DNA of 64,000 bases from a virus (lineage: Duplodnaviria; Caudoviricetes), in the IMG/VR virus record IMGVR_UViG_3300033066_000276, positions 1 to 64,000 of that record; one strand, written 5' to 3'. The notes beneath the pieces are model-generated. The model was not told the DNA's origin. It did no database searches and worked only from the letters and a program-made list of their open reading frames with translations. This document shows, one piece after another, positions 23,677 through 48,447 of this stretch (position 1 is its first letter; every line of letters starts with the position of its first letter). A program made the translations under genes and the position numbers.

Positions 23677-24786
23677 TTAATACTGCAACGAACCCTTTGC
23701 GACAGCGCGCGCGTTGCCCAGGGTAAGCGACAGGATTTCGTGGAAATCCCAGCCACGGCCCGGACGCGCGTCCGTGATGGTGGTGTTCAACTCTTGGGTT
23801 TGGATCGGACCACGATCGGTGTAAGCACCGAGGTTTTCCGGGTTACCAAACACCCAAATGTCGCCACGGGTCAGAACCTTCAAGGCTTGGTCGCGGAAGG
23901 CGTCGGTGATAACCGAACAACCAACAACGCGGCCAATCTCGCCGGTCATAACAATGTCGTGCTGCGAGATCGGGTCAAACCACGTCGCAAACGCCGACGA
24001 ACCGAGCATGTTGTTCTGCACGTCCGTCGCCATCAGGATGGTGGCTGCCGGGAGGCCCCATTCAGTCACGCCGCCTTTGAGGGCAGTGAGAGCTGACGGG
24101 GTGAAACCACCCGAAATATAGAGCAGGTCGTTTTCGACACCGACTACATCATTCGCCAGGGCCAGGAAGAGTTTGTCTTCCTTGACGAGCACTTGCTCTT
24201 GAAGTTCAAAGAACTTCTCGTCGAGCAGGTCGCCCGGACCTTGGTTGAGTTCGATCTCACCGATCGAAATGCGACCGCGGACATAGAATTCCGGCGGGTG
24301 CATGTAGTAGCCGCGCAGCAGTTGGCTTTGGAGGCTGGCGCCGTCCGAAGAAACTGCAATCGCACGGGTGTCCTTACGACGAACTCTGATACGCGGGGGC
24401 ATACCTTGGGTCGCTTCGCCTTTCAGCATCAGACGACGCATGAAGCCATCGCGTTCACCAGATTCGTTGATTTCGGCACCGATCAGAGCGCCAAGCTCAA
24501 GCCATGCGTCGCCCTTGCGGTCGTGAAACGCAGCTTCTACGGTTTCCCGCAGTTCGCGCTTTTCTTCCGCTGAGGTTTCAGCATAACGTTGCTGGCGATT
24601 GGACATCACTTCGCCTTGCGCGACTAGCTTTGCAAGGTTGGCAATTTCCTTCATCAGTTCCTGACGGCTCGACGCATTGATCTCGCCGTTGTTGCCAACA
24701 AGGTGTTCGCCCTTGCCACCATCTTTACGATAGTCGCTAGCGCGTTCCTTGCCGACTGTCATCTTCTTCCAGGGGTTCGGTCTCAT
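23677..24786 (-). CDS. Major capsid protein (HK97 fold)
   Basis: 369 aa after the scaffold and decoration genes; ERDGFMRRLM, EDKLF, G(E/R)VVG.SVITD, GRGWDFHE pattern of HK97-type capsids. Confidence 0.8.
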   Translation of the reverse strand: MRPNPWKKMTVGKERASDYRKDGGKGEHLVGNNGEINASSRQELMKEIANLAKLVAQGEVMSNRQQRYAETSAEEKRELRETVEAAFHDRKGDAWLELGALIGAEINESGERDGFMRRLMLKGEATQGMPPRIRVRRKDTRAIAVSSDGASLQSQLLRGYYMHPPEFYVRGRISIGEIELNQGPGDLLDEKFFELQEQVLVKEDKLFLALANDVVGVENDLLYISGGFTPSALTALKGGVTEWGLPAATILMATDVQNNMLGSSAFATWFDPISQHDIVMTGEIGRVVGCSVITDAFRDQALKVLTRGDIWVFGNPENLGAYTDRGPIQTQELNTTITDARPGRGWDFHEILSLTLGNARAVAKGSLQY

Positions 24787-29057: not shown

Positions 29058-29423
29058 CTATCTCTCAATGTTTTCCCAGAAGCGTTTCTCATCAGGATTC
29101 AACTCTTCCAGAGGGAGCCTTTCGCCCGCCGCTAGATGGGTACTGTCGCCATGGAAGTATATCTCGCCATGCTCTATGTTGTAATGGCAGATCTGTTCAC
29201 GATCCTTACCGTTACGGCGACCCTTAGAGTGTCTTAGGCTTGGAGTAAAGTGCGGTTTGTGCTGGTCGAAGTTAAACTCCCAGGTCGGCCCTCCCTCTGG
29301 CCGATCGAATGGAATGACATGGGCTTCATTGCAGCCTTGGCAATGATGGACGAAGCCACACCCCGGCAGGAAGTAGAGCTTACCGAAATAACCTCGAACG
29401 ATAGTCATCTTACCCTTCTGCAT
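29058..29423 (-). CDS. DUF6527-like small Cys/His protein
   Basis: CQGCNEAHVIP...WEFN...PHFTPSL...CHYNIEHGEIYFHGDSTH matches my recollection of this family's pattern. Confidence 0.65.
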   Translation of the reverse strand: MQKGKMTIVRGYFGKLYFLPGCGFVHHCQGCNEAHVIPFDRPEGGPTWEFNFDQHKPHFTPSLRHSKGRRNGKDREQICHYNIEHGEIYFHGDSTHLAAGERLPLEELNPDEKRFWENIER

Positions 29424-31416
29424 TCTTACCCATCAGCCACTTTGGAATCTTCAAACCTTGGTTGGTGAACCACTCTCTCATCCAACCTTTGTCAATGTAA
29501 GACTTGACGCTGGTAGACCAAATTGGTTCACCTGTTGCTTTCTTGTGACCCAACGTGACCGCTACCGGCTCAGCCACTTCCTTCTTAAACCACGCCTCTA
29601 CCGCTCGTTGTTTGTCAGCAAGCGACATACCTTTGGCTAGACGAGGTTTCTTTCCTTGCCCGTCGAGGATTTCCTGAGCCGTCATTGTGCCGCGAACGTG
29701 ACGAATCTTGTGAGCAGTTGACGGAAAGCCAATGTGCTTGAGATACTCGTTAGCAGCTTTCTCAGTAACCCTCTTCTGACCGATGCCGTAGGTCCACAGA
29801 AAGTCGGCTTTGCTCTTGCCAGTAATCAGTTTCTGTAACAGCTTGCCAGCCTTCTTTTGCACCGGAGTCTTGAACTTGGTAATGTGGTTTTGACCAATGT
29901 CCGACTTGCCACTGTACTTTAGAGCAATGCTGCTAACACCAGCATCAGTGCTATTGAGACGTACGTTATTGATGACCAGTGAGGACATACCGTCGTTCTT
30001 GTTCTTCAGTGAGCCAATACGTGCGGCGGTGTCCCATGTCATCCATACCAACAAGACAGTAACATCGTTCTTGTCAAGAACCTTCTTGTTGTCATCGATC
30101 TTACGAATATCGGCTTGCAGTCGTGCCACGATCTTTGGTGCAGCGGCAATACATTCACGGATTGTTTCATCCTTACCACTTTCACGGCGTTGGGTGTGTC
30201 CCTGCGTGTAGTAAGAATTGACCCCACCTGACTTGAGAGGTTTCAGATCAGTGATTGGAATGTCGTCATAGTCACCATCGTTGTCAAACACGACACGGAC
30301 ATTCTTGCCGTCAATCTTCTCAACGGTGACCTTATTCAAGCGGCCATCCCATTTGATGACTGCTCTATCACCAACTTTCCAAGCGGTTTTCGTTTCGTTA
30401 GACTTGTCATCTACCGCTTTGATGTAATAGGTGCTGCTGCCTTGTGTGTATTCCGGGTTCATAGTAACCGGACGTCCAGGCAACGGCCAGCCTTCCACTG
30501 CTTCACCGTAAGGTGTGAACAGAGACAAAGCGCCTTCCTTGGTCAGACCAATATTGCCAGTGTAGCCGGTCGGTACTCGGCTCCAAGGAATACCAGCCTT
30601 CTTCATCTGGGCTTCAAATTCGACCGCAGGGACATGCTGTTTGCCGCTTGAACGCAACATGCTCTTGGCTTGCGTATTCCATAGCTTAACAGCTTCACTA
30701 GCCGAACGCTTGTAGATAGCGAGCGCACCCGCCTTCTTTGGGTCTGCTGCCAGCCTTACTTCTTCCGAGTAAGTCAGCAGATAGCCCTTACGATTGACCA
30801 GCTTGAGCACACCTGCTTGGAGTTCTTCTCCCAGCTTCGTGGTCTGTGACCGATCGTGTTGCTTGACGAACTTCTTCTTGACGTTGATGTCCTTGACCAC
30901 GTTGCTGAAATTGACAACGTTGTTCCAAGCCGAAGCACTATCGTGGTTACGAAGATAAGAGCCAACGTGTTTGAAGCTGACAATCAGAGAGTAATCGTTA
31001 GCTTGAGCCGCATTGTCCAACTGCTTGGTGAACGTCAACAGTTCGTTACCAACCTGTACCGCCTTCTCCTTTACCTCTGGAACATAACCGCCACTTTTGA
31101 CCAGGGTGTCAGCAATCTCAGTCAGCTCTCGATAGCCCAAGCACATACCGGTTGTGATTTGCAGAGAACGAATGGTGCTTGACCACTTCTTCAATGCCTC
31201 AGCGTCTTGTGGCGTGCATGTACGGCTGTGAACGATATGTGCCAGCAGATAATAGGCATCTACCACCAAGGCAACTCGATCACCTTGGTATTCCATGTCC
31301 GGAACGTTTGAGGCTTTCTTCTTGCGTCGGGCTGCCACTTCGGTTACTAGACCGGAAGCGACGAACGCCAGCACTTCTGCGTTGTTTAGGTGTTCTGGGT
31401 TCACGTAGAGTCGCAT
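29410..31416 (-). CDS. DNA topoisomerase IB-like protein with an inserted Tudor/SH3-like domain
   Basis: AARIGS (Arg), YSGKS (Lys), AHKIRH (Arg), TLGH (His), KSYID (catalytic Tyr) in TopIB/tyrosine-recombinase order; WKVGDRAVIKWDG...VRVVFD insert. Confidence 0.78.
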   Translation of the reverse strand: MRLYVNPEHLNNAEVLAFVASGLVTEVAARRKKKASNVPDMEYQGDRVALVVDAYYLLAHIVHSRTCTPQDAEALKKWSSTIRSLQITTGMCLGYRELTEIADTLVKSGGYVPEVKEKAVQVGNELLTFTKQLDNAAQANDYSLIVSFKHVGSYLRNHDSASAWNNVVNFSNVVKDINVKKKFVKQHDRSQTTKLGEELQAGVLKLVNRKGYLLTYSEEVRLAADPKKAGALAIYKRSASEAVKLWNTQAKSMLRSSGKQHVPAVEFEAQMKKAGIPWSRVPTGYTGNIGLTKEGALSLFTPYGEAVEGWPLPGRPVTMNPEYTQGSSTYYIKAVDDKSNETKTAWKVGDRAVIKWDGRLNKVTVEKIDGKNVRVVFDNDGDYDDIPITDLKPLKSGGVNSYYTQGHTQRRESGKDETIRECIAAAPKIVARLQADIRKIDDNKKVLDKNDVTVLLVWMTWDTAARIGSLKNKNDGMSSLVINNVRLNSTDAGVSSIALKYSGKSDIGQNHITKFKTPVQKKAGKLLQKLITGKSKADFLWTYGIGQKRVTEKAANEYLKHIGFPSTAHKIRHVRGTMTAQEILDGQGKKPRLAKGMSLADKQRAVEAWFKKEVAEPVAVTLGHKKATGEPIWSTSVKSYIDKGWMREWFTNQGLKIPKWLMGKNAEG

Positions 31417-31479
31417 TTGGCCTTACCGTGGCTAAGCTAGGGGTGTCGAAATAGGATGTGTTTTGAGGGCTCAATCAGG

Positions 31480-31605
31480 CTATTTGGAGCCTGTATCGTC
31501 CTTATTAGAGTCATTTCTACGGCTGTAGTTGAAGTAGATGCTGTAGGCTGCCAGAACTAGAAACAGCACGATAACGACGATTCCGCCAACATTCTCAATA
31601 GGCAT
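31480..31605 (-). CDS. Small membrane protein (41 aa), not in the ORF track
   Basis: GGAG RBS then MPIENVGGIVVIVLFLVLAAYSIYFNYSRRNDSNKDDTGSK*; one hydrophobic helix. Confidence 0.65.
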   Translation of the reverse strand: MPIENVGGIVVIVLFLVLAAYSIYFNYSRRNDSNKDDTGSK

Positions 31606-31609
31606 GTCC

Positions 31610-31963
31610 CTACTCCAGTCTTATGCCGTGGTCTGATTGACCACATTGCGAACACTTACCCTTCCGGCCCACTGAGTCGCAAGTATGTACCTTGACAAAC
31701 TTCTTCTTGGCCGTACAGTTGGGGCAAGGAACATAGTTTAGGCCACCTCTATTATTCAACGGGTGGCCTTTGGCTTTTGCCTCTGCAACGGTATGGCTTA
31801 TCCATTCCTGTTGCGAGCGAGCCGACTTCTTCTGGAACGTCTGAATCCACCAGTTCGTGCAACAGGTTGGAATACCATTGACCCGACCTAGCTTCCGATG
31901 ATGGTCTTCAGGCTTACCACCAAAAATAGCTACTTCGTTGGACCGAGTGAACTTGATCTGCAT
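31610..31963 (-). CDS. Hypothetical Zn-finger protein
   Basis: GGAGG RBS, start MQIKFTRSNEVA; CPNC and CSQC motifs. Confidence 0.7.
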   Translation of the reverse strand: MQIKFTRSNEVAIFGGKPEDHHRKLGRVNGIPTCCTNWWIQTFQKKSARSQQEWISHTVAEAKAKGHPLNNRGGLNYVPCPNCTAKKKFVKVHTCDSVGRKGKCSQCGQSDHGIRLE

Positions 31964-31964
31964 G

Positions 31965-33809
31965 TCACTTGGCCTCCATCCTTTCAAAGCCTAGTTTCTG
32001 CATGTGATCGTGCAGTTCCTGTGGGCCGTGTACTACTCTGGTGTAGTGGGTCTTTGTTTCACCGGCTACGGATTTTTTTCCGCCCTTCGTTATGAACGCC
32101 ACACCTTCTGGTCCACTTACTTTATTTCTCATATACTTCTTCTTAGGCATCCCCCACTTGACAGTTACATCAGGAGCAGCAGTTTCTTTTGATAGAGCCT
32201 CACCGACCGGCTCATCCTTAGGCATAATGACTTTGAGTTTCTTGTCCCATACCTCTTTGCACTTGTTCAAGAACTTGCGCCACGGCTTCGTCTCTACCAG
32301 TGACAGGTTCTTGATCTTGCGCTGGTGAGCGCGGTCGAGAATGTCTTGCAGAATACCAGTGTCCCGCACCGCCTTGTAGGCTACGTTCTGCACTTTCCAT
32401 TCAGCTCCAGGGCTGCCATCGAGTGAAGAATTACGCAGGCCAACAATTTGACCACGGACCTTCATCATCTTGTCAATGTCACCAGACTTGATGGCATCAT
32501 TGAGTTGCTTCATCCAAGCGTTCTTGAGTGCCGTGGCAGCCTTTTTGTTGACCGTCGGTTTGACCCACTTGGGCTTCTTGATCCATTCGTTCTTGGTCAA
32601 CGAGTATTGACCATCAGACGTATGCACCTGATCGAGTGGATCGATCGACAATTCAACCGGCAAGCCCATCACCCGCACGTCTTTGTAGCGTTGTTTCCAG
32701 GCAATCTGTTTAGCCTGAATAATCATACGGTCGGCTGGATTCTTTAACGTGCTGATGATATGCACGTCGATGTCTGAGCCCTTGTGATAGTTGAAGTTGG
32801 CGTTGGAGCCCTTGAACAGAACCTCGTGCTCTTCCATCTTGATGTTCATGAACTGCTTGTAGGTGTTCACGATCTGAGACAGCTTGGCACGCACTTCCGG
32901 TTTCAGATAGGCATCCTTGCCGAACAGCTTAGGGTTCAGCTTATCGTGGTAGACGTAAGCCGTTTCAACTGACGCCGTGACTACAGCCTGCTTCGGCTTA
33001 ATCAGCATCTGCGGGTCAACTAGCTCTTCCGGCTTGATGTAACGCTTAGCACCCTTTTTGCTCAGGGTCAGCTCTTGGTTACGCAGGCTATTCATCTTCT
33101 CGTTCATCTTGTCTAGGTAACCCATCGACCGCACCAGACGATAGGCGAGGTTGTAGGGATTAGTCTCACCCTCAACCGAACCAGGGTTAGCGTTGAGGAT
33201 GGTGCGACGAGCTTTGAGAATGTCCTGGTTGCAAGCTAGGATAGTTTGGAAATCGTTGGTCTTCAACGCCGCATTGATACGCTGACACATTGATAGAGCC
33301 AGCTTGCGAATACGCATGTCCTTCTTGTTGAAAGTAAACTTGATCGGCGGTGCGACCCACGTGTTCTTGATGAGTGAATACACACCGCCAGCGGGCTTCG
33401 GTTGTTCTTCATGCTCAACGAAGACTTCAATCGGCAAGCCAACAGCTTTAATCTTACGCAGCTTCTTCCACAGCACCGTCTTGGTGTAGATCATATCACG
33501 AATGAACATCTCACCGTGCGTGTTCAACTGAATGTGAACGTCGAGATCTGACTTGCCAGAGTAATTGTAGTTGGCGTTGCTACCCGAGATGTTAATGTCA
33601 CTGATCGGATAGGTCTGAATATCGATCTTGGCAAATGCCAAAAACCCCCTGACGACTTTCAGGAGGTGCTGACGAATGTGCGGCCGCATCTTGCGGTTCT
33701 CATCCCAAATCTGTGGGTTCAAATCCTTGTGTTGCTTGAGGCCGTGCGTGGTAGGTGGCAGGCCGACCTTTTCCAACAGGGCTTGATCGCGGTAGAAGTT
33801 GTAACGCAT
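31965..33809 (-). CDS. Tandem two-domain Pol-beta-superfamily nucleotidyltransferase
   Basis: Two copies of GSNAN(Y/F)NY...SD(L/I)DVH with downstream (V/L)E(V/L) and helical lobes; 614 aa. Confidence 0.85.
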   Translation of the reverse strand: MRYNFYRDQALLEKVGLPPTTHGLKQHKDLNPQIWDENRKMRPHIRQHLLKVVRGFLAFAKIDIQTYPISDINISGSNANYNYSGKSDLDVHIQLNTHGEMFIRDMIYTKTVLWKKLRKIKAVGLPIEVFVEHEEQPKPAGGVYSLIKNTWVAPPIKFTFNKKDMRIRKLALSMCQRINAALKTNDFQTILACNQDILKARRTILNANPGSVEGETNPYNLAYRLVRSMGYLDKMNEKMNSLRNQELTLSKKGAKRYIKPEELVDPQMLIKPKQAVVTASVETAYVYHDKLNPKLFGKDAYLKPEVRAKLSQIVNTYKQFMNIKMEEHEVLFKGSNANFNYHKGSDIDVHIISTLKNPADRMIIQAKQIAWKQRYKDVRVMGLPVELSIDPLDQVHTSDGQYSLTKNEWIKKPKWVKPTVNKKAATALKNAWMKQLNDAIKSGDIDKMMKVRGQIVGLRNSSLDGSPGAEWKVQNVAYKAVRDTGILQDILDRAHQRKIKNLSLVETKPWRKFLNKCKEVWDKKLKVIMPKDEPVGEALSKETAAPDVTVKWGMPKKKYMRNKVSGPEGVAFITKGGKKSVAGETKTHYTRVVHGPQELHDHMQKLGFERMEAK

Positions 33810-33811
33810 GA

Positions 33812-34450
33812 TTATTTCTCAACCCCAATTTGGAATACTTGTTTAGCGAATGGGTCAACGATGACTAGCTTATCCTGTGTGTTCATCATCAGGTTGCCTG
33901 GGTTCAGATCGAAACGAAACAGCGGTGTCGCTAGCTTCTGTAGGCCCAAGACGGTTCTAGTGAGTGATTCTAGTTGTTTGGTCTTGCGCAAGTAAGCGCG
34001 AAATTCTCTGGCTCGACCGAGGATATCTGGGTTGTAGTTGTCTGGCATCGTCTTTGACAAAGCCAACCCAATGATCGCGTTACCCCAACCAAGATTACCC
34101 GCAGCCAATAGCTTTCTAAGGTTTGGTGGCAGAGGCTTAAGCCGTTGTAGTCTAACTGCGTACATGCGCTTGCCGACACGCACCGTCTTACCAATGATGT
34201 TTGGTAGGTGCTTATTTGTCTTAGCCTTGCGGCAATGAGCTAGGAAGACACTGTAACCGTGATCGAACTTGTAGCACTTGAGAACTTGCGATGTATCACC
34301 CGGCTTAATGAAGACACGAGCCATCGCACCCGCACCAATCTTCTTGGTGAAGCCTACCTTTTTGGCGTAGTTTGCGGCCTTTATTTCAAAGGCAGGATCA
34401 ATGGTTAGTACACCGCCATAGATGTACGAGCGCTCGAAGTAGTAGCGCAT
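33812..34450 (-). CDS. Protein-kinase-like (ePK/APH fold) protein
   Basis: KIGAGAMARVF Gly-loop, VLK, DLNPGNLM catalytic loop, IVDP metal-binding motif. Confidence 0.8.
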   Translation of the reverse strand: MRYYFERSYIYGGVLTIDPAFEIKAANYAKKVGFTKKIGAGAMARVFIKPGDTSQVLKCYKFDHGYSVFLAHCRKAKTNKHLPNIIGKTVRVGKRMYAVRLQRLKPLPPNLRKLLAAGNLGWGNAIIGLALSKTMPDNYNPDILGRAREFRAYLRKTKQLESLTRTVLGLQKLATPLFRFDLNPGNLMMNTQDKLVIVDPFAKQVFQIGVEK

Positions 34451-34451
34451 C

Positions 34452-34838
34452 TTATTTCACAACGATGATCTTATATCGAACAACCGGGTTGGTTACCACG
34501 AACGGATTATTGATTGAGAAATCACCTATTGCTCCAGCATACAAGAACATGCGTTCAAGCGGAACATGGTAGAAGTCCTCCCAAGCGTTACCGTTTTTGA
34601 TCTTGACACTAAAGTCAACTGGATGATCTACAACGATGTATAGACCCATTGGAGGAGTGCTGAGGTTAAACTCCATACCAAAGTTGGGTGGATCACCATC
34701 GTCAGTTGTTAGTTCGCCTTCGATAACCTGGACACCGTCACCTTGCATGGTGATCTTGTTACGAGCGATGTCTTCTTTTTGGTCACCATCGTAGCGACGA
34801 ATTGAGATGTCGAACGACACAGAAGTCTCAGCGGTCAT
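34452..34838 (-). CDS. Hypothetical beta-rich protein (paralog of 22127..22477)
   Basis: LYIVVDHP...MFLYAGAIG...NPV. Confidence 0.65.
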   Translation of the reverse strand: MTAETSVSFDISIRRYDGDQKEDIARNKITMQGDGVQVIEGELTTDDGDPPNFGMEFNLSTPPMGLYIVVDHPVDFSVKIKNGNAWEDFYHVPLERMFLYAGAIGDFSINNPFVVTNPVVRYKIIVVK

Positions 34839-34933
34839 TTCTTCCTCGCTAGCGCCTTGCGCTTACGTCGCCAGTAGCGGTTATCTACGTAGTCTTCCCA
34901 CTTGGCAATTTTCCACCACTCAAGTACAGCCAT
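34835..34933 (-). CDS. Small Trp/Arg/Lys-rich peptide (32 aa), not in the ORF track
   Basis: MAVLEWWKIAKWEDYVDNRYWRRKRKALARKK*; TAATG overlap upstream and ATGA overlap downstream exactly fill the gap. Confidence 0.7.
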   Translation of the reverse strand: MAVLEWWKIAKWEDYVDNRYWRRKRKALARKK

Positions 34934-35172
34934 TACGCATCCTTTTTATCGACGTGAATACCTAGACCTTCAAGTTGCTTATGAGCATCTGGGTGTCCAG
35001 TTACAACCACGTTGTAATGCTTGCCGCTACGATCTCCACGCACACCAACAAAATCTGTGACGTGACCTTTGTGTTGCAAGTCAACAAGATTCTCACGGAA
35101 TTTGCTGACGCCGCCTTTGGGGATTCGATATGCCGTAGTCTTGGCAACCTCCCGACGCATTTGATAACGCAC
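34933..35172 (-). CDS. Small basic protein with MRY tag (putative internal head protein)
   Basis: MRYQMRREVAK start; coupled overlaps. Confidence 0.7.
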   Translation of the reverse strand: MRYQMRREVAKTTAYRIPKGGVSKFRENLVDLQHKGHVTDFVGVRGDRSGKHYNVVVTGHPDAHKQLEGLGIHVDKKDA

Positions 35173-35417
35173 TAAACCAATCCTTCTGAGATTAAGTCAA
35201 CGGTGAATCCTGAGCGATAGAAACCAGCTTCGCGTAAGGACTTACTCGGTTCCAGTTCTTTCTTACCATGATATAAGACGAGACGATCCCGGTCAGAGAT
35301 CAATCGCCTTTGGGCAGCTTCTTTTATCACGTCTGCTACCTTGGCCGAAGCCAAGGCGCTCATTGGTACTACACCCATTTGGGTCCGAACTTGGAACCGA
35401 TACTCATCCATTGCCAA
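35172..35417 (-). CDS. Putative ubiquitin-like (beta-grasp) protein
   Basis: FQVRTQMG...AKVADV...LVLYHGKKELEPSKSLREAGF...TVDLI aligns by eye with the ubiquitin/YukD hydrophobic pattern. Confidence 0.6.
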   Translation of the reverse strand: MAMDEYRFQVRTQMGVVPMSALASAKVADVIKEAAQRRLISDRDRLVLYHGKKELEPSKSLREAGFYRSGFTVDLISEGLV

Positions 35418-35432
35418 TCCCCTTGGCTAGAT

Positions 35433-36029
35433 TTACCGTTGTAGCATTGAGAAGTAGTCTGGGTTGCGATGACTTGGATTGCCCCTTGGCCTGGGTACTT
35501 TTGAAAAATCCAAACCAAGCTCTTTTACGATAGAGATATTTGACCTACCTAGAGCTACGTCATTCACCGCCGCCGCGCTACACCCTAATTTTTCCGCTAT
35601 CACACGGCAAGGTGTTTCCGCTTTCAAGGCTTTGTAGATGAATTTGATTGCCTTCTTGTTAGCGATCTTACTCATCGACCTGTTTTGCACTTGTTTTACG
35701 GCATCTACCATTCTGATGTTGGAAGGATTGTTGTTCGTGACAACCCTATCCCTGTGGTCAAGTTCCATCTTGTTAGCTTTGAGATACTCCCTAAACTCCC
35801 AAGATTTTGTGGCTAGGGCGTAAGCAACGTAATGCTCACGAACGTCTAACCTCTGTCCGCTTCCATACAATGAGTAGCGTGGATAACCACACTCGTCAAA
35901 GTTATCAGCGAGTACCCTTCGCGGACCGGTTACCCTTAACCTACCATTGGATAGCAACTTCGCTGTGTATCCGTCAAATGGTTCAGGAAGGCGATAAGTC
36001 TTTCCTACCTTGAGCTTTCGCTTCTTCAT
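35433..36029 (-). CDS. HNH homing endonuclease
   Basis: ELDHRDRVVTNNNPSNIRMV HNH motif and C-terminal HTH. Confidence 0.88.
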   Translation of the reverse strand: MKKRKLKVGKTYRLPEPFDGYTAKLLSNGRLRVTGPRRVLADNFDECGYPRYSLYGSGQRLDVREHYVAYALATKSWEFREYLKANKMELDHRDRVVTNNNPSNIRMVDAVKQVQNRSMSKIANKKAIKFIYKALKAETPCRVIAEKLGCSAAAVNDVALGRSNISIVKELGLDFSKVPRPRGNPSHRNPDYFSMLQR

Positions 36030-36811
36030 TTGTTCAACATGCTGAAATAAGAGGGGTTGTCAGCCGTCACGTAAGCCGGGGTGGCGACGCTAGATGTTTC
36101 AAAGCCGATTGGATCGATGGCTCTGTAATAGGCCAGATCGGAGCCGTTGTAGAGGCGATACTGCGGACGTTGCTTATCAACGTGATCGCAACCACCAGAC
36201 TTCAATGACTTGGCGCAGATCGAGCACTCGTAATCCTTCACATACGCGCCCATCGAATAGGCGGTACGCTTGCGGGTTAGAATGTCATTGACCAGCATTG
36301 CGTCCTTGCTGCGATCAAACGCCAGCAACGAAACAACCTTCCACACTGAGCCTTCGTAACCAGTCATTGGACGAATAGCGGTATCGAGGATAACGCCTTT
36401 TGCTTCAACCGGGTTTTGGTTCTGGTGCTCAACGTGCGTGGGTTTGCCGACCCAGGACTTATACATCAAGCAGCCGGTGTCTGGGCTAAATCGCGTCAGT
36501 TCTCTGAACGGGAAGCCAACGCCGTTACGATTTGGCAGTTCCGACGGCATAATCATCACCGGGATGACAACATAGTCAGCTAACGATTTCGAGATGCGGT
36601 ACGGCTCAGACGCAAACGGTAACCAGCCACGAACCTTCTTGGTCAGGTCCATGAAGCCTTCGGTGTCCGTCAGCGCATCAACGCCAGCGATAGACGTGAT
36701 AGAACGCTTTGCATCTTCCTCGTCACCCTTCATAACCTTGTGAAGCTCAAAGGGGGTAGATGTAACGCTCAAGTCGTGGAACGACATCTCAAGAAATTCA
36801 CGATCTTCCAT
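36026..36811 (-). CDS. Putative prohead (capsid maturation) protease
   Basis: NRNGVGF...KPTHVEH...GVILD...YSMGAYVKDYECSIC...CDH: His/Ser arrangement of HK97/herpes-type phage maturation proteases. Confidence 0.72.
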   Translation of the reverse strand: MEDREFLEMSFHDLSVTSTPFELHKVMKGDEEDAKRSITSIAGVDALTDTEGFMDLTKKVRGWLPFASEPYRISKSLADYVVIPVMIMPSELPNRNGVGFPFRELTRFSPDTGCLMYKSWVGKPTHVEHQNQNPVEAKGVILDTAIRPMTGYEGSVWKVVSLLAFDRSKDAMLVNDILTRKRTAYSMGAYVKDYECSICAKSLKSGGCDHVDKQRPQYRLYNGSDLAYYRAIDPIGFETSSVATPAYVTADNPSYFSMLNK

Positions 36812-39986: not shown

Positions 39987-40966
39987 TCTTTATCCTTAAC
40001 AGCTAACTTCTTGTAGTCTGGTGTTGGGCACTTACCGCGCCGGAATGGATGCATTGCAGTCCATGCTGATTGTTCGCAATTGTGATAAGCGGTAGCACAG
40101 ATCTTCTTGATGTTGTCAGCAGTGAGCGGCTTTGAGAAGTCATTGCCTAGCACAGTAACAATTGCGTTTTTGATCTCATACATAGTGAGAACGCTTACTT
40201 TGTAGTGCTCACCGTTTGTCTTGCGAGGATGAAAATCTTGCTTCCAAACTTCGATTACCTTATCAAGGATGTCAGCCGGAACGTTCTGAACCGCTTTGGA
40301 CTTAGCCTCATCCTCAGGTGAAGGTGGCTTGGCGATATAGCCAACAGGCTTTTCAAACGCATTCTGATCGTAATACTCAGGGTGATAGGACCAATCGCCT
40401 GCGGGAAGCGACTTGAGCACAGGAATTCCAACGTAGCGTTGGTGCGCTTGGATCAACGCCAGTTTGCGTTTTCCATATTCCTCATCCCCGATTTTTCCAC
40501 GATTGCGGGAGAGCCAACTCAAACGCCACTCCGTCCGTTTAGTCACATCGTCCCTAAACCCGCCGAAGGATAACGGACGAACCGGCCACATTCCTGGCTC
40601 TGTCCTTTTATTTTCCTTCTTGTTCCACGCTCGAATAGCTTTAACAATCAGGCCAAGCTTGGCATGAGGGATGTCAAAGGTGAGACGATGATTGCGAGGA
40701 TCAGAGTAACGCTCGTTTATCTGAACCACCTTTGGTTTGACACCATGCTTTTTAAGTATGGCACTCACTTGGGTAGCTGCTTTTTTATCTGCGGCAATGA
40801 GGCTGTAGCTGCCTTGGATGGTCTTTGGAAACTTGATCCCTTCAACCGTCTCCAATACCGTGCCTGCTACTTTGGGTTTTGCCTTGGCCTTCTTTTTGGT
40901 TGGATCTCGACGCAAACGTTTAGTGGCTACGTCTTCGTGATCCCGGTTGAAGCTGAAACGCATCAC
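39983..40966 (-). CDS. Basic hypothetical protein with MRFSFNR tag
   Basis: 327 aa ORF coupled to the portal stop. Confidence 0.7.
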   Translation of the reverse strand: MMRFSFNRDHEDVATKRLRRDPTKKKAKAKPKVAGTVLETVEGIKFPKTIQGSYSLIAADKKAATQVSAILKKHGVKPKVVQINERYSDPRNHRLTFDIPHAKLGLIVKAIRAWNKKENKRTEPGMWPVRPLSFGGFRDDVTKRTEWRLSWLSRNRGKIGDEEYGKRKLALIQAHQRYVGIPVLKSLPAGDWSYHPEYYDQNAFEKPVGYIAKPPSPEDEAKSKAVQNVPADILDKVIEVWKQDFHPRKTNGEHYKVSVLTMYEIKNAIVTVLGNDFSKPLTADNIKKICATAYHNCEQSAWTAMHPFRRGKCPTPDYKKLAVKDKE

Positions 40967-43900
40967 TCTGTCACTCCAAATGCGCTCGGCGTTCTCATCG
41001 CCAGCCTTTTGATTTCACGCTTGTTGAGTTTGCCGCCGCCAGAAGCAAGTTCAAGTAAGGCCGCAGCGATCTTCTTGTTCTGCTTCTCTTCAAGCCGCTT
41101 TTGGTAAGACGAGGTAGCGATACGACGCTGGCCTCGGCTGTCGCGTTCGTAGACACGATAGCGGTCAGTATCAAACTCACCGCGCGGCTTCTTCATCTTG
41201 GCATAGGTACGGCCAAACGATTGCAACGCCGCATTCATCTCACGACGATCGGCTTCACTCAGATTGGCCTGCTCCATACCCGGTTGCTGTGGCATAAACT
41301 TTTCAAGCCGGGCCAGTTGCTTCGACACGTCTTTGCGAGTTTGCAAGTCATCGTCGAACTGATCCATAACCTGATCGAGATTCATACCACCGGCGGCAGC
41401 AATCATCCGCAATGGCACTGGCACCCCGTTCTGCGTCATGATCTGCAGGATGTTGAGGTAGGCTTCGTCCGCTTGCGGTTGCAGTTGCTTGTGCCAGTTG
41501 ACCGTTGGGATCTGATACTCAGTGATATCCTCGATCTCATTCAGGTCGTGGCCCAAAGAACCATCGCACAACGCCATGTAGTCGCCGTTGCGATTCTTCA
41601 TGATATAGGTGCCGCGCGAGCCCCAGATAGGCCGACGATACGGTGAGATGTATTCACCGCGACGACGCAGGCGAGCCCGCTCACTCTTACTCAGTGAACC
41701 ATGCGCCTTGAAGCTACGGCCACCATCTTCGTTCTTGAAGTTGTTGGCAACCGCAATCGACGGGAACAGCTTATCGTAGAACAACTCCCGCGTCACCATC
41801 TGACGATAGCTACGCAGTTGTTCCATGAACACCGACAGGGCGGTTTCTAGTGTATTGTAGCTGGCCTCACCTGAGAGGAAGGTTTCGTTGATGCCCAGAC
41901 CCTTGAGCTTTGCCGCTGCAAGGTAATCGTAGACATCCGAATTATGAACGACAATACCATTGGCAACGAAGGAATTTTCTTCTCCCTTAGCCATTGTCAA
42001 ATCGTAAGTACTTACGATCTTGCCCTTGGTTATTTCCTTTAACTCAGTGAAGAAGAATTTTCTCTCAAACAAGGCAATTACTTTAGCGTGTTCCGTGGGA
42101 GAAACCTGCTTTAGGATTGAAAGTTGCTGGTCGTATTCTCCATCGACATAATTGTCGTAGCTCCAAAAAGCTCGAAGTTCGCGATTGAAAATGTTGTAAC
42201 CTTCAACCTCAATATCCTTTCCATCATCAGTTCTAAGGATTACTCCTACACGACGACCTACTTTCCGTCCGTTTAAGAACGCCCTAATACCGGCAGTAGG
42301 AATACCAGCCGTGTGTTGTGGCCATTGTGGTGTCGCTACTTCTTTGATCTTGTGGGTCAAAAATGGTTGGAGCTTGGAATTTAAGCTATGAGTGGCACCA
42401 CGATTGAACGTAAGAACGTTATTGTGGATATGACTCAAACATCCATGAGACGCCATCATTGTCTGCATCTGACGAAGGTTCTTCTTCGAGGATGAAGCAA
42501 TACTAATGTTAGTCTCAGAGATAGTACCATCACCCTCGATGTAACCAGCCAAATAAGCCAACTGACATTCTTCGTTGGCTTGCAAAACTGTGTAAGGTAC
42601 TTCTTTGTAGTACGAAGGAGATTTTTTCTTTCGATGGTTCTTCAGGCCAATATGAGTCCAAAACTTGGATAGTAAAGTGCTGCAATATCCAACATCATAA
42701 AACTCCTTAGTAGAAGTCATACCGGCAGATTCAATACCTGGCGGTCGTGTTCCTCTTCGAGCTTCAATACCAAATTGTTCCAGCATGATAGTGGCAAAAC
42801 GATCGGCAAGCTTCTTGTTCGAGTTGCCAAAATGGCTCTGCGTTTTGTCAAAGCTTCCTTCGGACACCATCAAGCCTAAGATGAAAGCCAAGTCCGTATT
42901 CATGTACTTTGGAAAGCGGAGTTCTTTTTCGTTACCATATTCGTTGGCTTCAAACGGAGGCAATTTATATTCAGATTGACGAGTCAACGAATCTGTAGTG
43001 GCACAAAGCAAGTCACCTAATTGGAGGTCCTTACCTTTCTTCCAGACTACTTCGTTATTTTCAAGCACCATAAAGCGGTGTTCTTTGGTAGCAGTTATCG
43101 TCTGACCATTGGCTGTACGATATTTGAATACAGGTTTTTTGCCTGCATTGGTCCATTCCGCCACTTTGGCTGGACCTTTGCCACCTAGAATACGAAGAGG
43201 TTTGCTGGAATTGTTGATACGATCCTCTAACTCGTCAATGCGAAAGATACCTTCTTCTGTTGGAATAAGGGTATCACCAGCAAGACAGTGTTTCCACAGA
43301 TCATCCCCACGCCGGACTTCGTTAGTCAACACCCCTTGGCGTGTGACGACGACGGCTCCAGTCGGGTCGAGGTTAGCAGTAGCGAAGAGGTTAGCCCCCG
43401 CTTGCATTTCCTGATCGGTAGGTTCCCAGACTTCATCGCCCATCGTGATATGCAAAATCGCCCGTTGGCGGGCGTAGGCTTGCTCCATGGTGCCGCGCAT
43501 CAGCGCTTTTTCCATGATCCACAACGGTATCAAACGACGAAACGCCGATGTTCCAATTGACGAGTACGAGAAGGTCTTGCGACCGATGTAAACTGTGCTG
43601 GCTGGATCAAGGGCGATACGATTGCCACCACCACGTCCACCACCGCCGCGATTTGAACCGCCAGTGGACGCACCTTGCACGGCTTGCTTGTAGAACTCAG
43701 GTAGATTCTTCAACGCCTTCTTGGCGCGATCATCCTTTGAGTTGAATAGCTCGACCAGATTCTTCGGCACCTTCATATCGATGATAGGGTCCATCCCGTA
43801 GATGGGCGTATCAAGGAACTCAAGGTTATCTTGGTTGTGGGTGACGACGTTCGAGAAGATGCCGCGGCTCTTGTTGAACGAGAACGTGCCGACGAAAGCT

Positions 43901-44415
43901 CCATCGACAATGTAGTCAATCGACAATTGCGGGAACAGTGTCTTGAGTTTGAGGTTCTCAATCGACTTGACGAAAACCTTGAGCACCTCTTCATCGTTGA
44001 CACCACTCAACGAGAAATCTGAGAACGGCAAGTTAGACATCAGGTCGGCAGCGGAGCCGGCAATGGTGTCGTGGTAGTACATATCTCGAGCCAGCTTACG
44101 GATAACCTGTGGCTTCGAGGTGACGATACCTTCAATGACGTCCGCTTCGTACTGGCCGACGATGGCAGAACCACCGAGTCCAGTCTTGCTCGAATTAACG
44201 TCAACCCCACCCGCCGCCGCAACTTCGGCCATGTACGGATCGGTGTATGCTTCCTCACGAGAGTTGGCAAGCACCTTCTGATCTGGCTTGCCGGTAACAG
44301 CTACAGATGAACGTTCGCCCCCGCCGCCGTAGCCAAGCTGGGAGTTAAAAGTAACCAAGCGTTGTTTGCCTTGACGGTCTTTGTAAAGGCCGACTTCTGA
44401 TGTACGTTTGAGCAT
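40963..44415 (-). CDS. Portal protein, intein-containing
   Basis: Follows terminase; RDMYYHDTIAGSAAD...LPFSDF, RRLIPL, LGINETFLSGEASY portal-like motifs; about 700 aa after intein removal. Confidence 0.75.
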   Translation of the reverse strand: MLKRTSEVGLYKDRQGKQRLVTFNSQLGYGGGGERSSVAVTGKPDQKVLANSREEAYTDPYMAEVAAAGGVDVNSSKTGLGGSAIVGQYEADVIEGIVTSKPQVIRKLARDMYYHDTIAGSAADLMSNLPFSDFSLSGVNDEEVLKVFVKSIENLKLKTLFPQLSIDYIVDGAFVGTFSFNKSRGIFSNVVTHNQDNLEFLDTPIYGMDPIIDMKVPKNLVELFNSKDDRAKKALKNLPEFYKQAVQGASTGGSNRGGGGRGGGNRIALDPASTVYIGRKTFSYSSIGTSAFRRLIPLWIMEKALMRGTMEQAYARQRAILHITMGDEVWEPTDQEMQAGANLFATANLDPTGAVVVTRQGVLTNEVRRGDDLWKHCLAGDTLIPTEEGIFRIDELEDRINNSSKPLRILGGKGPAKVAEWTNAGKKPVFKYRTANGQTITATKEHRFMVLENNEVVWKKGKDLQLGDLLCATTDSLTRQSEYKLPPFEANEYGNEKELRFPKYMNTDLAFILGLMVSEGSFDKTQSHFGNSNKKLADRFATIMLEQFGIEARRGTRPPGIESAGMTSTKEFYDVGYCSTLLSKFWTHIGLKNHRKKKSPSYYKEVPYTVLQANEECQLAYLAGYIEGDGTISETNISIASSSKKNLRQMQTMMASHGCLSHIHNNVLTFNRGATHSLNSKLQPFLTHKIKEVATPQWPQHTAGIPTAGIRAFLNGRKVGRRVGVILRTDDGKDIEVEGYNIFNRELRAFWSYDNYVDGEYDQQLSILKQVSPTEHAKVIALFERKFFFTELKEITKGKIVSTYDLTMAKGEENSFVANGIVVHNSDVYDYLAAAKLKGLGINETFLSGEASYNTLETALSVFMEQLRSYRQMVTRELFYDKLFPSIAVANNFKNEDGGRSFKAHGSLSKSERARLRRRGEYISPYRRPIWGSRGTYIMKNRNGDYMALCDGSLGHDLNEIEDITEYQIPTVNWHKQLQPQADEAYLNILQIMTQNGVPVPLRMIAAAGGMNLDQVMDQFDDDLQTRKDVSKQLARLEKFMPQQPGMEQANLSEADRREMNAALQSFGRTYAKMKKPRGEFDTDRYRVYERDSRGQRRIATSSYQKRLEEKQNKKIAAALLELASGGGKLNKREIKRLAMRTPSAFGVTE
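41941..43287 (-). mobile_element. Intein with LAGLIDADG endonuclease in the portal (449 aa)
   Basis: Starts CLAGDT, block B TATKEHRF, LGLMVSEG and LAGYIEGDG, ends FVANGIVVHN followed by Ser. Confidence 0.95.
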
Positions 44416-44711: not shown

Positions 44712-47700
44712 TTACAGCGTCTTACTAGCGCCAATACCAACAGCGGAACGACCTCCGCCAGTAGCACTGCCAGACACCATTACACCCATCCCGGAAACAC
44801 TTTGAACCCCTGCCGCTCCACCAATGAAGCCAAAGCTGCCAAAGCGTTTGGCTGTCTCGCCAGCGAACTTGGGAGCAAGGTCTTTATCGCGTAGGAAGGA
44901 GTGGGCTAGCACTACGGCTCGGAAGATATCGTCGGTAGTTGACTCACCCTTCTCAACCGAAGTCTCAAAGTCACGCACCGTCATGATCTGAGCGATCAAG
45001 TGCGCCACCGGCTTGCCTTCAAAGCCTTTTGGATAGCTCTCGTCAATCAAGTCGAGAATCTCAGGGATCTTGACTTCGCAGCGAGGGAAGCTGATAGTGG
45101 CGTCGTGAATGTCTTCACGCAGCATTTCAAAGTCTTCGTACTTGACCGTGTACTCGCGGGTGTCCACTCGACGATCAGTCTCAATGTCCATTAGGATCTT
45201 CTTCGACTGCCATCTATCTGTGACCGCCATGATGACGTTGAACTCATCGATCAACGGTAGCAGGATTCGGTCATACACGTCTCTAAAGTTGATGCGATGG
45301 TCCTTCTGTGGGATCACTTCGCCAATAGCGTCAATCACCGGCGACAGAGCCTTGTCATTGTGCGCTACACAGAAGGCAAAGCTGTTTCCCGTTAGGATAT
45401 AGTCTTCCAACACGAAGGAGTGAGTGTCAGGAATCTCCGCACAGTAAACCTTCTCACGGCGTTTGGTTTTATTTATTGACTCTACTGTCCACTTGGTTCT
45501 AGTGTTGAAATCCTTAGTGTTGTTGACGAAGCGTTCTCTATGTTGTGGGTTAAGCAACAACTCAGCCGAGAATGTCTCCCGCAGGAAGAAGAGCTTATAG
45601 CACTTGAACATCTTGCCATTGAAAGGATTGACTGTTTCTTGACAAGTAATCGGACTGGTGGCTACACCAAGCTTATTACAGACGTCTCTCAGCTTGCGGA
45701 GATTTTTCTTGGTGATGCTGTTTATCATCACCTTGCCATCCTTATCAACACAGCCATCGGTAGCAATGTATCCCGCGATGAATCCTCGCAAATACGAGTC
45801 ATCATATCTTGGTGATGGTACACTTTTGTATTCAATTGGAAGGTGAGTAATGACTATCTCATTCTTTGGATATTCACCACGCTCTTGCCAATACTTTCCT
45901 CTTGCACGATACCTCTCAAAGTAAGGCAACAAGAAATCAATTTTATGGTAGCAGAGATTAGCTACACTCCAGTGACGTTCCTGGCCCTTACCCCATGGAC
46001 CTAAGTGACCGTCACCCATAACCACACCATGTTCCACTCCACGCGGGTCAATGGACCAATCGCTATTAACAGGCGGCAAAACACTATCGATCTTGTAGCC
46101 CGTCTGTAACGTTTCGGTAGTAAGCTCCTTACGGGTACGATTCTTATCGAAGGCAAACCATCTATGGTTTCCAGTTACACGGATTACCTTCTTAGCTCCA
46201 TTGAAGCTAAGCTCTAATTCGTACAGTTCGGCTTTGCCGTAGCATTTGAACTCAGTCTTAACCCATTTTGATCCTTCGGTAAGGACTTCTACCGACTTAC
46301 CAATAAGACGATCGATACGTTTTGTCCCGTTACGGGTAATAACCTTTGTCTCACCAGCGAAACAATTGTGAGTTTCACCAGCGTCGAAGGTCAGGATGTG
46401 ATTGGTTTTGGTGCCTGGGGAAATGATCTTGGCCTTACCAGACGTCATCACCGCGTTGGCTCGCGTTTGCACCAACACTTGCTTGATCTTGAGCAGGTTC
46501 TCACGATGCGGGTCGAGGCACTTCTTAACGAAATTGATATCCCCGATGAAGCCAGCAGACGACAGCGGTGGCTTGGCACCGTAATCTCGCATGGCCTTTT
46601 CGTAGTTTTCCGCGAACTCTTCCGCCAGCACCTTGCGGCTAACCTTGGGGTTCATTTCCCAAGTAGCATAGCGGAAGCCGTACACCATACGGCTCTTCTT
46701 CGATTGGTTGTAGAGCTTGGTGATTTTATCGTAGCGACTCGACGGCGATGAGATGTTGAGGAACATCGGGGCCGGAATAGAGTTCATGCCCTTCTTCCGC
46801 AGTGTGGCATGAGCCGCACGCAGGGTAAGGAAGGACCGTCGCATAGCTTTGTGGACTTCGTCGGCGTTTAGTTTCACGGCTCCATCGTTACCAGTGAACC
46901 AGCCGATTTCGTCGATACCTCCAAGGTAACGAGTTAGACCACGCAGGGTACGCATGTTCGGGCCTGACACCGATCCAATCAGGTTCCTGTGGCGATACCA
47001 GTAGTACGTGTCCTTGAGCGAATAGTATTCGATACCGGTTTTCTCATGCCAGTAATCGAGCATCTTATGGTAGTTCTTATACCACGGACCTTCCGTCAAC
47101 GCTTGGTAAATTGGATCCCAAATCGTCTTACGAGCTTGATCTTGTGTGGTCGCCAGGAAGGTTGCGCCAAGCTGCTGATTCTTCAACAGCCCGAAGAACT
47201 GTGAAGGGTTGGGCAACTTGAGGAAGAGGTGATTGGTGTAGGATGTGACCATGCCGGTGACGGCAGACTTACCACCACGCTGTCCAGCGAGGCCCGCCAT
47301 CTCATAGTGATCGTTCAGATCACCTTCGGCCACCATGTCTGACTTGCGACCATCGCACTGTGGACAGATGCCGTTCTCAAGCAAGACAACGTGTTCAAGG
47401 TAGGCGGGAACTTTGGTCTTGACCGACACGCTACCGTCGAGCCATTTCATGTCCGTGCAGTACGGGCAATACTCTGACATTAGGTTCACGGCGATCTCGA
47501 ACTGACGGCCAAACGGCGTCATGTTCTGATACATCTTCGAGCAAGTGAACTCGTAGAAGTTTTTAGCCTGTGGGAAGTCACCGTCGTCGATGCTCATGTC
47601 TGGCATCGAACCGGCGTTCTTGACTATATCGAGAACGTACTTCTCAACGTCGAAGTTTATGTCATCGTCGCTGGTCTTTGGTTCCCACGGCTGAATGGTA

Positions 47701-47906
47701 TCTTCTTTGTCTTGCGCCGACTCGGCCATCATACGATCAAGATCGAAGCGCTCACCATCGGCTTCTCGAAAGCGTGAGCACAGGTAGCCGCTAGACTTAC
47801 TCTTGTCAGTGCAAATCGGCCACAGGGCACAGGTTAGGCAATTTTCCTCAAGACTTGGACGAAGACTTCTTCCTAGCTTTAATCGGATACGACGGCGTTT
47901 TTCCAT
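44712..47906 (-). CDS. terL: Terminase large subunit, intein-containing
   Basis: Walker A AGQRGGKS, Walker B GGIDEIGWF, coupling motif ISSP, WEMNP, RuvC-like TFDAG and DDIFRA; Zn-finger insert CPYC...CPQC. Confidence 0.93.
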   Translation of the reverse strand: MEKRRRIRLKLGRSLRPSLEENCLTCALWPICTDKSKSSGYLCSRFREADGERFDLDRMMAESAQDKEDTIQPWEPKTSDDDINFDVEKYVLDIVKNAGSMPDMSIDDGDFPQAKNFYEFTCSKMYQNMTPFGRQFEIAVNLMSEYCPYCTDMKWLDGSVSVKTKVPAYLEHVVLLENGICPQCDGRKSDMVAEGDLNDHYEMAGLAGQRGGKSAVTGMVTSYTNHLFLKLPNPSQFFGLLKNQQLGATFLATTQDQARKTIWDPIYQALTEGPWYKNYHKMLDYWHEKTGIEYYSLKDTYYWYRHRNLIGSVSGPNMRTLRGLTRYLGGIDEIGWFTGNDGAVKLNADEVHKAMRRSFLTLRAAHATLRKKGMNSIPAPMFLNISSPSSRYDKITKLYNQSKKSRMVYGFRYATWEMNPKVSRKVLAEEFAENYEKAMRDYGAKPPLSSAGFIGDINFVKKCLDPHRENLLKIKQVLVQTRANAVMTSGKAKIISPGTKTNHILTFDAGETHNCFAGETKVITRNGTKRIDRLIGKSVEVLTEGSKWVKTEFKCYGKAELYELELSFNGAKKVIRVTGNHRWFAFDKNRTRKELTTETLQTGYKIDSVLPPVNSDWSIDPRGVEHGVVMGDGHLGPWGKGQERHWSVANLCYHKIDFLLPYFERYRARGKYWQERGEYPKNEIVITHLPIEYKSVPSPRYDDSYLRGFIAGYIATDGCVDKDGKVMINSITKKNLRKLRDVCNKLGVATSPITCQETVNPFNGKMFKCYKLFFLRETFSAELLLNPQHRERFVNNTKDFNTRTKWTVESINKTKRREKVYCAEIPDTHSFVLEDYILTGNSFAFCVAHNDKALSPVIDAIGEVIPQKDHRINFRDVYDRILLPLIDEFNVIMAVTDRWQSKKILMDIETDRRVDTREYTVKYEDFEMLREDIHDATISFPRCEVKIPEILDLIDESYPKGFEGKPVAHLIAQIMTVRDFETSVEKGESTTDDIFRAVVLAHSFLRDKDLAPKFAGETAKRFGSFGFIGGAAGVQSVSGMGVMVSGSATGGGRSAVGIGASKTL
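45384..46364 (-). mobile_element. Intein with LAGLIDADG endonuclease in TerL (327 aa)
   Basis: Starts CFAGET, VTGNHRW block B, IAGYIATDG, ends FVLEDYILTGN followed by Ser. Confidence 0.93.
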
Positions 47907-48447
47907 TAGGGCTGCTCTGCTGCATTAACCGGGCTACCATAGACGCCAGTGCATCCTTGGCTTGCGCCGGTGTGAATTCTGTAAGCATAGCTAGGTTGCG
48001 AATCCTAGCGCGTGCTTTAGGCCCTAAATTGGTGTCTTTGAGCAGCATGTCGAGGACTTCAATACGGGCAATTCGACGCCCCGTAGCCTCTACTTCGGCC
48101 ATTTCGAGCCCTATTGGGATATTCATTTGGGTGGCAAAGACCTTGTTTGCCTGGGCTACACCCTCCATTTGAGCGTATAGACGAATAGTTAGATCAAGCG
48201 CCCGATCTCTAGTCGTGGCGACTGTGGTTTCCCAGATGCGGAATAGCGGCCCTTGGTCAACGTTGTCTTCAAGGTTGGCAAAATACTTCGCCAACCGCTT
48301 GCGTTCTCGCAGCAGACTCTTTTGTAGTTTAGTCTTCGAGGTAGTCGTCGAGGCTTTCGTCTTGTTCTTCTTTCGGTCGCTTCTTGGACCCACCCTTACC
48401 CCCTTTTCCTTTCTTTCCTCCTTCACTTCCTCCGTTACCTTTGACAT
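47848..48447 (-). CDS. Hypothetical protein upstream of TerL (possible small terminase); start uncertain
   Basis: Helical basic ORF directly upstream of terL; overlaps the dnaB end. Confidence 0.45.
   Translation of the reverse strand: MSKVTEEVKEERKEKGVRVGPRSDRKKNKTKASTTTSKTKLQKSLLRERKRLAKYFANLEDNVDQGPLFRIWETTVATTRDRALDLTIRLYAQMEGVAQANKVFATQMNIPIGLEMAEVEATGRRIARIEVLDMLLKDTNLGPKARARIRNLAMLTEFTPAQAKDALASMVARLMQQSSPNGKTPSYPIKARKKSSSKS

Follow-up and report, generated by a model that had tools for sequence, protein, structure and literature searches.

The locus and its phage

The window (the whole stretch of DNA that was analysed, 64,000 nucleotides) covers the opening 64 kb of an IMG/VR record of 80,096 bp, whose completeness is estimated at about 36%. 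All the long ORFs of the window are on the minus strand. A short ORF at 35172..35417 (-), 81 aa long when read from a TTG codon, had been singled out by a first-pass annotation as a ubiquitin-fold candidate inside the head module. The ORF does exist at that place, and the genes for the large terminase (TerL), the portal, the prohead protease and the major capsid protein (MCP) were located around it (Table 1). The protease of the window shows 36–47% identity to proteases of jumbo phages of Vibrio, Erwinia, Pseudomonas, Xanthomonas and Dickeya, including Pseudomonas phage PaBG. The phages with those related proteases have genomes of 200–260 kb; thus, the phage of the window is a large one, with a genome of roughly 220 kb, and its host is probably a proteobacterium. 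The phage is uncultured. Near-identical DNA is present in wastewater and activated-sludge data sets, and runs in which it made up a small share (river, digester, soil) were left out as habitat evidence. Contigs of wastewater 'metatranscriptomic' libraries span the ubiquitin-fold gene with 100% identity, but contigs cannot show transcription, and the libraries may contain DNA.

It was observed that the phage carries three LAGLIDADG-type inteins, one each in the portal, the large terminase and a DnaB-like helicase. Alignments of the portal and TerL to relatives by tblastn are interrupted at the intein inserts. A further observation concerns the scaffold. In the related locus L011 (53%-identity protease), the ORF at the scaffold position (9685-10692, + strand of that locus) has a run of more than 150 residues rich in Asp/Glu, and this acidic tract fits with the acidic-linker scaffold of the 1062-aa protein of the window.

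Table 1. Features of the head module and of the accessory block around the ubiquitin-fold gene (window coordinates)
Feature	Position	Strand	Remarks
DnaB-like helicase intein	about aa 385-729 of 48329-50806	-	Pfam Intein_splicing + LAGLIDADG_3
Large terminase (TerL)	44712-47906	-	head module
Large terminase intein	about aa 530-838 of 44712-47906	-	Pfam Intein_splicing + LAGLIDADG_3
Portal	40963-44415	-	head module
Portal intein	about aa 378-825 of 40963-44415	-	Pfam Intein_splicing + LAGLIDADG_3
Prohead (head maturation) protease	36026-36811	-	phrog_18299, E 4.5e-70
HNH endonuclease gene	35433..36029	-	HNH_3, phrog_99 and others; between protease and ubiquitin-fold genes
Shine-Dalgarno-like AAGGGGA	35418..35424	-	6 nt 5' of ATG, abuts TTG; identical in the relative L004
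Ubiquitin-fold gene	35172..35411	-	79 aa; ATG 35411; stop TAG 35172-35174
g79	34933..35172	-	79 aa; downstream of ubiquitin-fold gene; begins MRYQMRR
Basic ORF	34838-34933	-	32 aa; between g79 and the 128-aa gene
128-aa orphan	34452-34838	-	accessory block
T7-kinase-like protein	33812-34450	-	212 aa; accessory block; missing in L004
Pol-beta nucleotidyltransferase	31965-33809	-	tandem-duplicated; Pfam
125-aa orphan		-	accessory block; listed between nucleotidyltransferase and topoisomerase-like genes
Topoisomerase-IB-like protein	29410-31416	-	668 aa; Topoisom_I, PF01028, E 6.8e-9, over cutoff
MCP (major capsid protein)	23677-24786	-	head module
Tagged ORFs	starts 40963, 38653, 37485, 35172, 34450, 33809, 31416	-	N-terminal motif M-R-[YFIL]-x-[FMV]-x-[RP]

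The ATG at 35411, giving 79 aa, is a better start than the TTG because of the Shine-Dalgarno-like sequence 6 nt upstream and because the first 11 codons are conserved in L004, where they differ only by synonymous (third-position) changes plus one D>N. The JGI prediction, which starts at Met12 (68 aa, P0001), makes the protein too short. When the gene was compared with its sole relative (P0002 at locus L004, 74% identity), synonymous sites were saturated (pS = 0.75) and non-synonymous change was low (pN = 0.185, dN/dS ~0.05). By this pattern of substitution the ORF is a genuine gene, which is translated and subject to purifying selection.

The immediate surroundings of the gene vary between the two lineages. 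In L004, which is an 84%-identical relative, the HNH gene is absent and the protease is the immediate upstream neighbour, with 23 nt from its stop to the start of the ubiquitin-fold gene. In contigs of other runs the HNH stretch and its junction with the ubiquitin gene differ from the window in 12–20% of bases, whereas the ubiquitin-gene stretch is identical. This suggests that the HNH gene is a mobile or allelic cassette. On the downstream side, the ubiquitin-fold gene ends in a stop that shares a base with the start of g79, as TA[G]TG (GTG start), in the window, and the two are joined as TAA-ATG in L004. By this arrangement, which is conserved in both lineages, g79 is predicted to be translationally coupled to the ubiquitin-fold gene. 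A fusion of the two by frameshift or readthrough was ruled out, as g79 is in the -1 frame here and in frame after TAA in L004. The g79 protein is 89% identical to its counterpart in L004 (dN/dS 0.04). It was modelled by AlphaFold2 (AF2) at a pLDDT of 75.9, with the first 10 residues disordered and then a beta-alpha-beta-beta-alpha-beta domain. Its structure matches are generic ferredoxin/ACT-like only (Foldseek E>=5e-3; VIA Z<=6.8) and uninformative; no homologue of g79 was found beyond L004, and it is an orphan.

Next to g79 there is a very basic ORF of 32 aa, rich in Trp and Lys/Arg, which gene calling on JGI contigs and on Logan contigs recovered separately; L004 has its counterpart. The rest of the accessory block downstream of the ubiquitin-fold gene covers 29410..34838 (-). 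Cyanophages as well as phages of Maribacter and Prevotella have homologues of its duplicated nucleotidyltransferase, single-copy and about 225 aa long. Residues 430-642 of the 668-aa protein make up the catalytic core of a topoisomerase I of eukaryotic type, and L011 has a 759-aa ORF at the corresponding position. The block is lineage-specific and is inserted between the prohead protease and scaffold genes.

The motif M-R-[YFIL]-x-[FMV]-x-[RP] opens seven otherwise unrelated ORFs of the minus strand between 29.4 and 41 kb, as against none on the plus strand. On the nucleotidyltransferase the tag is an added extension, since its homologues elsewhere begin at query residue 24. The tag is predicted to be disordered on g79, it is absent in L011, and it is a candidate capsid-targeting signal. 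It should be noted here that the ubiquitin-fold protein itself has no MRY tag, its N-terminus being strand 1 of the fold, and packaging is therefore not indicated for it. Between these same-strand genes no promoter or terminator signal was found above shuffle expectation.

Predicted fold, sequence kinship and distribution

The first-pass annotation had suggested AlphaFold and a structure search as the check on its proposal, and a beta-grasp is indeed what was predicted. From a two-sequence alignment AF2 gave a mean pLDDT of 90.7 (four of the five models at 89 or above) and a beta-beta-alpha-beta...beta topology, with strands at residues 3-10, 13-20, 43-48 and 70-76 and a helix at 25-35. Foldseek against the PDB returned at least 500 matches at E<=1e-3, and among the matches listed all of about 45 were ubiquitin, SUMO, ISG15 or UBL domains (TM 0.71–0.84, about 0.8 to ubiquitin, SUMO and ISG15). 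VIA-align gave a Z of 12.2 with an rmsd of 1.6–2.4 over 73–76 residues. The bacterial ubiquitin-like protein from an E1-E2 complex (8tyz_B) scored Z 11.5, which ties with ubiquitin within 1 Z unit. The separate model of the ESM Atlas concurs, with TM 0.85–0.90 to ubiquitin-like clusters, and among the top matches in BFVD every named one comes from viruses of eukaryotes. The ubiquitin-like beta-grasp superfamily is marked by a beta-beta-alpha-beta-beta-(3-10 helix)-beta topology of about 75 residues, and AF2, Foldseek, VIA and the ESM Atlas all place the protein in it. Taking these models together, the protein is almost certainly a single-domain ubiquitin-type beta-grasp.

The two homologues differ at 3 of 33 strand positions as compared to 18 of 46 elsewhere (Fisher p 0.004, from two sequences). 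Residues 3-19 and 67-77 are identical in spite of the saturated synonymous sites, and the differences concentrate on the exposed helix and the loops. This conservation of the sheet fits, thinly as it comes from two sequences, with an interaction through the sheet face like that of the Ile44 patch of ubiquitin (here Tyr47 and Ile74). Core packing could account partly for the conservation of the strands.

At the level of sequence the resemblance to ubiquitin is low but recurrent. The best Pfam match is TUG-UBL1 (E 4.3e-4, 20.8 bits, under the 23.3-bit gathering cutoff). PF00240 gave no match at E<=0.1 with the protein or at E<=10 with the DNA, and no Pfam ubiquitin-family threshold was reached. 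A phmmer search of PDB sequences gave five matches at E<2 (E 0.4–1.7), all of them ubiquitin-like domains, namely a redesigned ubiquitin and ubiquilin 2 and 3. In these alignments Tyr47 pairs with Ile44 and Ile74 with Val70 of ubiquitin, and all five reproduce the register that had earlier been proposed from an alignment by eye. Identity to the UBL-domain relatives is only 10–20%. A full HMMER search brought up a protein of 1,378 aa that consists of 16 ubiquitin-family repeats, to which the query aligns full-length, repeat after repeat. Its library-wide E of 2.9e-16 is inflated because the scores of the repeats are summed; taken singly, the top repeat reaches 14.9 bits and, in a pairwise BLASTP, an E of 6e-7. 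The likeness of sequence to ubiquitin is thus weak but consistent; all the signals agree, and together they point beyond chance. PHROGs, NCBIfam and PADLOC gave no match for the protein (for PADLOC, none at E<=1).

The distribution of the gene is extremely narrow. Among about 15 billion proteins it was found in two lineages, this phage (in six JGI samples and sequencing runs) and the one 74% relative. A word-indexed search of 5.8 billion clusters recovered only the same phage (P0001) and that relative (P0002). HMMER over 1.84 billion representatives recovered only its own cluster, the 16-repeat ubiquitin protein and an MBG-repeat protein, the last being a spurious match. There was no match by tblastn at E<=1 in 50,697 phage records (INPHARED), none by megablast of the 5.5-kb region, and no relative in a pattern scan of IMG/VR. 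Longer, fused forms were searched for and none was found. In 32 IMG/VR loci with related proteases, scanned in every stop-to-stop frame with the two-sequence profile, the best E was 1.5 and no homologue was seen. The genes that follow the protease in GR7B, Amme-1 and L011 are unrelated to the ubiquitin-fold gene. The small post-protease ORFs of GR7B and Amme-1 were considered as homologues and rejected, one being charged and helical-looking and the other hydrophobic and membrane-like. As the gene is absent from all the related phages examined, it represents an orphan family and is accessory and lineage-specific; it does not belong to the core components of the head.

The C-terminus and possible modes of action

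The encoded C-terminus is ...LISEG-LV in the window and ...LISEG-MG in the relative, neither being Gly-Gly; the end had been read in the first-pass annotation as SEGLV, lacking GG, and so it stands in the sequence. The two sequences agree at Gly77 and over the 11 residues that precede it, whereas the last two residues have both changed non-synonymously. A conserved glycine followed by two variable residues makes a capped conjugation glycine possible. By the register in which Ile74 corresponds to Val70, Gly77 is three residues short of Gly76 of ubiquitin, and it comes directly after the last predicted strand (DSSP on the AF2 model). Being early and abutting the strand, it would leave a very short tail to reach into an E1 active site. 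The ThiF, Prok-JAB and Prok-E2_B models had no match across the 80,096-bp record (~36% of the genome), so that none of the enzymes that go with a conjugatable modifier, E1 (ThiF), E2 or JAB, was found there. The earlier statement that the window holds no E1 is thus borne out for the whole 80-kb record. ThiF is also absent in two complete phages with a related protease (43–47% identity). The UQ_con and OTU models gave no match in the 80,096-bp record either, but their controls gave none anywhere, so that these two results are uninformative.

Since the protein has no conjugation tail and no conjugation enzymes were found in 80 kb, non-covalent binding is the most likely way of action. We tentatively favour, as the leading candidate though at somewhat less than even chances, a ubiquitin-fold protein that binds non-covalently, as an adaptor or chaperone linked to the accessory block of head or payload genes. 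The gene would share its transcript with the head genes, and its translation would run in tandem with that of the MRY-tagged g79. The invariant face of the beta-sheet, the one that bears the Ile44 patch in ubiquitin, is the putative interface and would act as the adaptor or chaperone surface. Candidate partners are the protease, one or more of the tagged neighbours, or a host factor that the payload encounters. Here we infer three things: the non-covalent action, the sheet face as interface and the link to the head or payload block. What counts against the non-covalent reading is the conserved Gly77 followed by two unconstrained residues, which by analogy resembles a capped glycine, and the fact that some 64% of the genome is outside the record; the missing MRY tag likewise counts against a role in the payload. 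That the phage protein engages in ubiquitin-like conjugation is considered rather improbable. It could do so either as a plug for Bil, Bub or Cap2 enzymes of the host or as a capped self-tag with its enzymes in the part of the genome beyond the record.

Ubiquitin-like conjugation has recently emerged as an anti-phage weapon of bacteria, and we know of no phage counter-measures to it; a free-standing ubiquitin-fold protein of a phage is therefore a reasonable candidate for one. Such a protein would act as an anti-defence decoy, jamming the E1/E2 enzymes or the deubiquitinase of the host (Bil, type II CBASS Cap2/Cap3 or Bub-type) and thereby sparing the virion proteins from tagging. The fold matches 8tyz_B, a bacterial protein in complex with E1-E2, about as well as it matches ubiquitin. 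As encoded the protein is non-conjugatable, the gene is accessory and restricted to its lineage, and late co-expression with structural genes would coincide with the action of Bil on tail proteins (Hor et al.). The T7-kinase-like gene nearby comes from a family shown to disarm defences (PMC13645617); however, it is missing in L004, which keeps the ubiquitin-fold gene, and so the two are not an obligate pair. A decoy is in addition opposed by a single domain ending in Val, as compared to the two fused domains and invariant terminal Gly of BilA, and by a tail unlike that of ubiquitin. There is no sequence similarity to PADLOC defence-system models, and the nearest kin in sequence are eukaryote- or archaea-type UBL domains, not bacterial defence ubiquitin-like proteins. 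In the open-access text of the literature no description was found of a phage ubiquitin-like decoy or of a ubiquitin-like protein standing free in the head operon of a phage. Thus, a decoy is judged unlikely.

A slightly less likely possibility is that the protein is a precursor, trimmed after Gly77 to remove the LV or MG cap and ligated as a tag by E1/E2 enzymes from the host or from the 64% of the genome outside the record. The invariant stretch up to Gly77, with both final residues changed, fits with such a cap, capped glycines are known in BilA homologues (Hor et al.), and the contig being only ~36% complete leaves room for the enzymes. On the other hand, Bil operons keep the ubiquitin-like gene beside its enzymes, whereas here no such enzyme was found within 80 kb, and complete phages of the same protease clade are without ThiF. 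The early position of Gly77, straight after the last strand, and the resulting very short tail also speak against a tag, and a glycine conserved in two sequences is weak evidence.

The idea that the protein is a core structural or morphogenetic head protein (an accessory of the prohead core, the decoration or the scaffold, like the small proteins encoded next to T4 gene 21) is the least probable, for although the late head operon has the gene placed after the protease gene and before those for scaffold and MCP, and the C-terminal I-S-E|G resembles the T4 gp21-type cleavage motif, (L/I)-x-E, a core component would be conserved, and the gene is absent from the 32 IMG/VR loci, GR7B, Amme-1, L011 and INPHARED and matches no PHROG head family. 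Thus, of the 'structural beta-grasp' put forward earlier, the ubiquitin-type fold is upheld by prediction, and the role as a core head component is not, the gene being missing from all the related phages examined.

What lies at this locus is an orphan ubiquitin-fold protein in an unusual place, and its fold assignment is well supported by the models. It means that a ubiquitin fold with traces of ubiquitin-family sequence can occur as a lineage-specific accessory gene in a phage head operon, with no conjugation enzymes found in 80 kb. If the protein were an adaptor for its N-terminally tagged neighbours, it would shed light on the way in which enzyme payloads enter the capsids of large phages. 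If instead it were a mimic directed at host enzymes, no viral ubiquitin-like decoy would have preceded it among those acting on ubiquitination-type immunity of bacteria, and if it were a capped tag, the phage would be attaching a Gly77-ended protein to its own head or payload proteins.

Comparison with known systems

BilA consists of two fused ubiquitin-like domains with an invariant C-terminal Gly, and its gene has adjacent E1, E2 and deubiquitinase genes; in 12 BilA homologues there are overhangs of 2–9 aa after the conserved reactive glycine (Hor et al.). The phage protein shares with it a prokaryotic ubiquitin fold (8tyz_B) and a glycine with a short overhang, Gly77 plus two residues. It differs in having one domain, in ending in LV or MG, and in that no E1, E2 or JAB was found in 80 kb. 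Another ubiquitin-like beta-grasp of phages is TAPI (gpI) of lambda and T1, which serves in assembly and is not in the mature structure (PMC1779556). It is ThiS/MoaD-like, has a Gly-rich linker to TAPI-C, and is encoded in the tail module beside the JAB/NlpC gpK and gpJ (PMC1779556). In contrast, the protein studied here stands alone, is ubiquitin-family-like and is encoded in the head module, with no JAB, extra domain or Pfam TAPI match.

With other ubiquitin-like proteins the likeness is of different kinds. YukD and EsaB are small, non-conjugated bacterial ubiquitin-like proteins of type VII secretion. The likeness to YukD is one of fold only (YukD clusters of the ESM Atlas, TM 0.85–0.86), both being free-standing and not conjugated. 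PF08817 gave no match at E<=0.1, and the context is a phage head operon. Baculovirus v-ubi and the ubiquitins of giant viruses are close homologues of ubiquitin that work with the ubiquitin machinery of the host. Such ubiquitins of eukaryotic viruses are the best structural matches in BFVD, but the phage protein is highly diverged and comes from a virus of bacteria.

The closest kin, though no family threshold is passed, are those UBL domains of the ubiquitin family that are integral and not conjugated. The UBL domains of ubiquilin/Dsk2 and Rad23, TUG-UBL1, SUMO and ISG15 have the same fold over the full length (Z 11–12) and the same register. Integral UBL domains are without a conjugatable GG and act through non-covalent binding, and the phage protein likewise has no GG end. 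To our knowledge bacteria have no proteasome or UBA partners. The UBL domains belong to larger shuttle factors, whereas the phage protein is a free-standing one of 79 aa.
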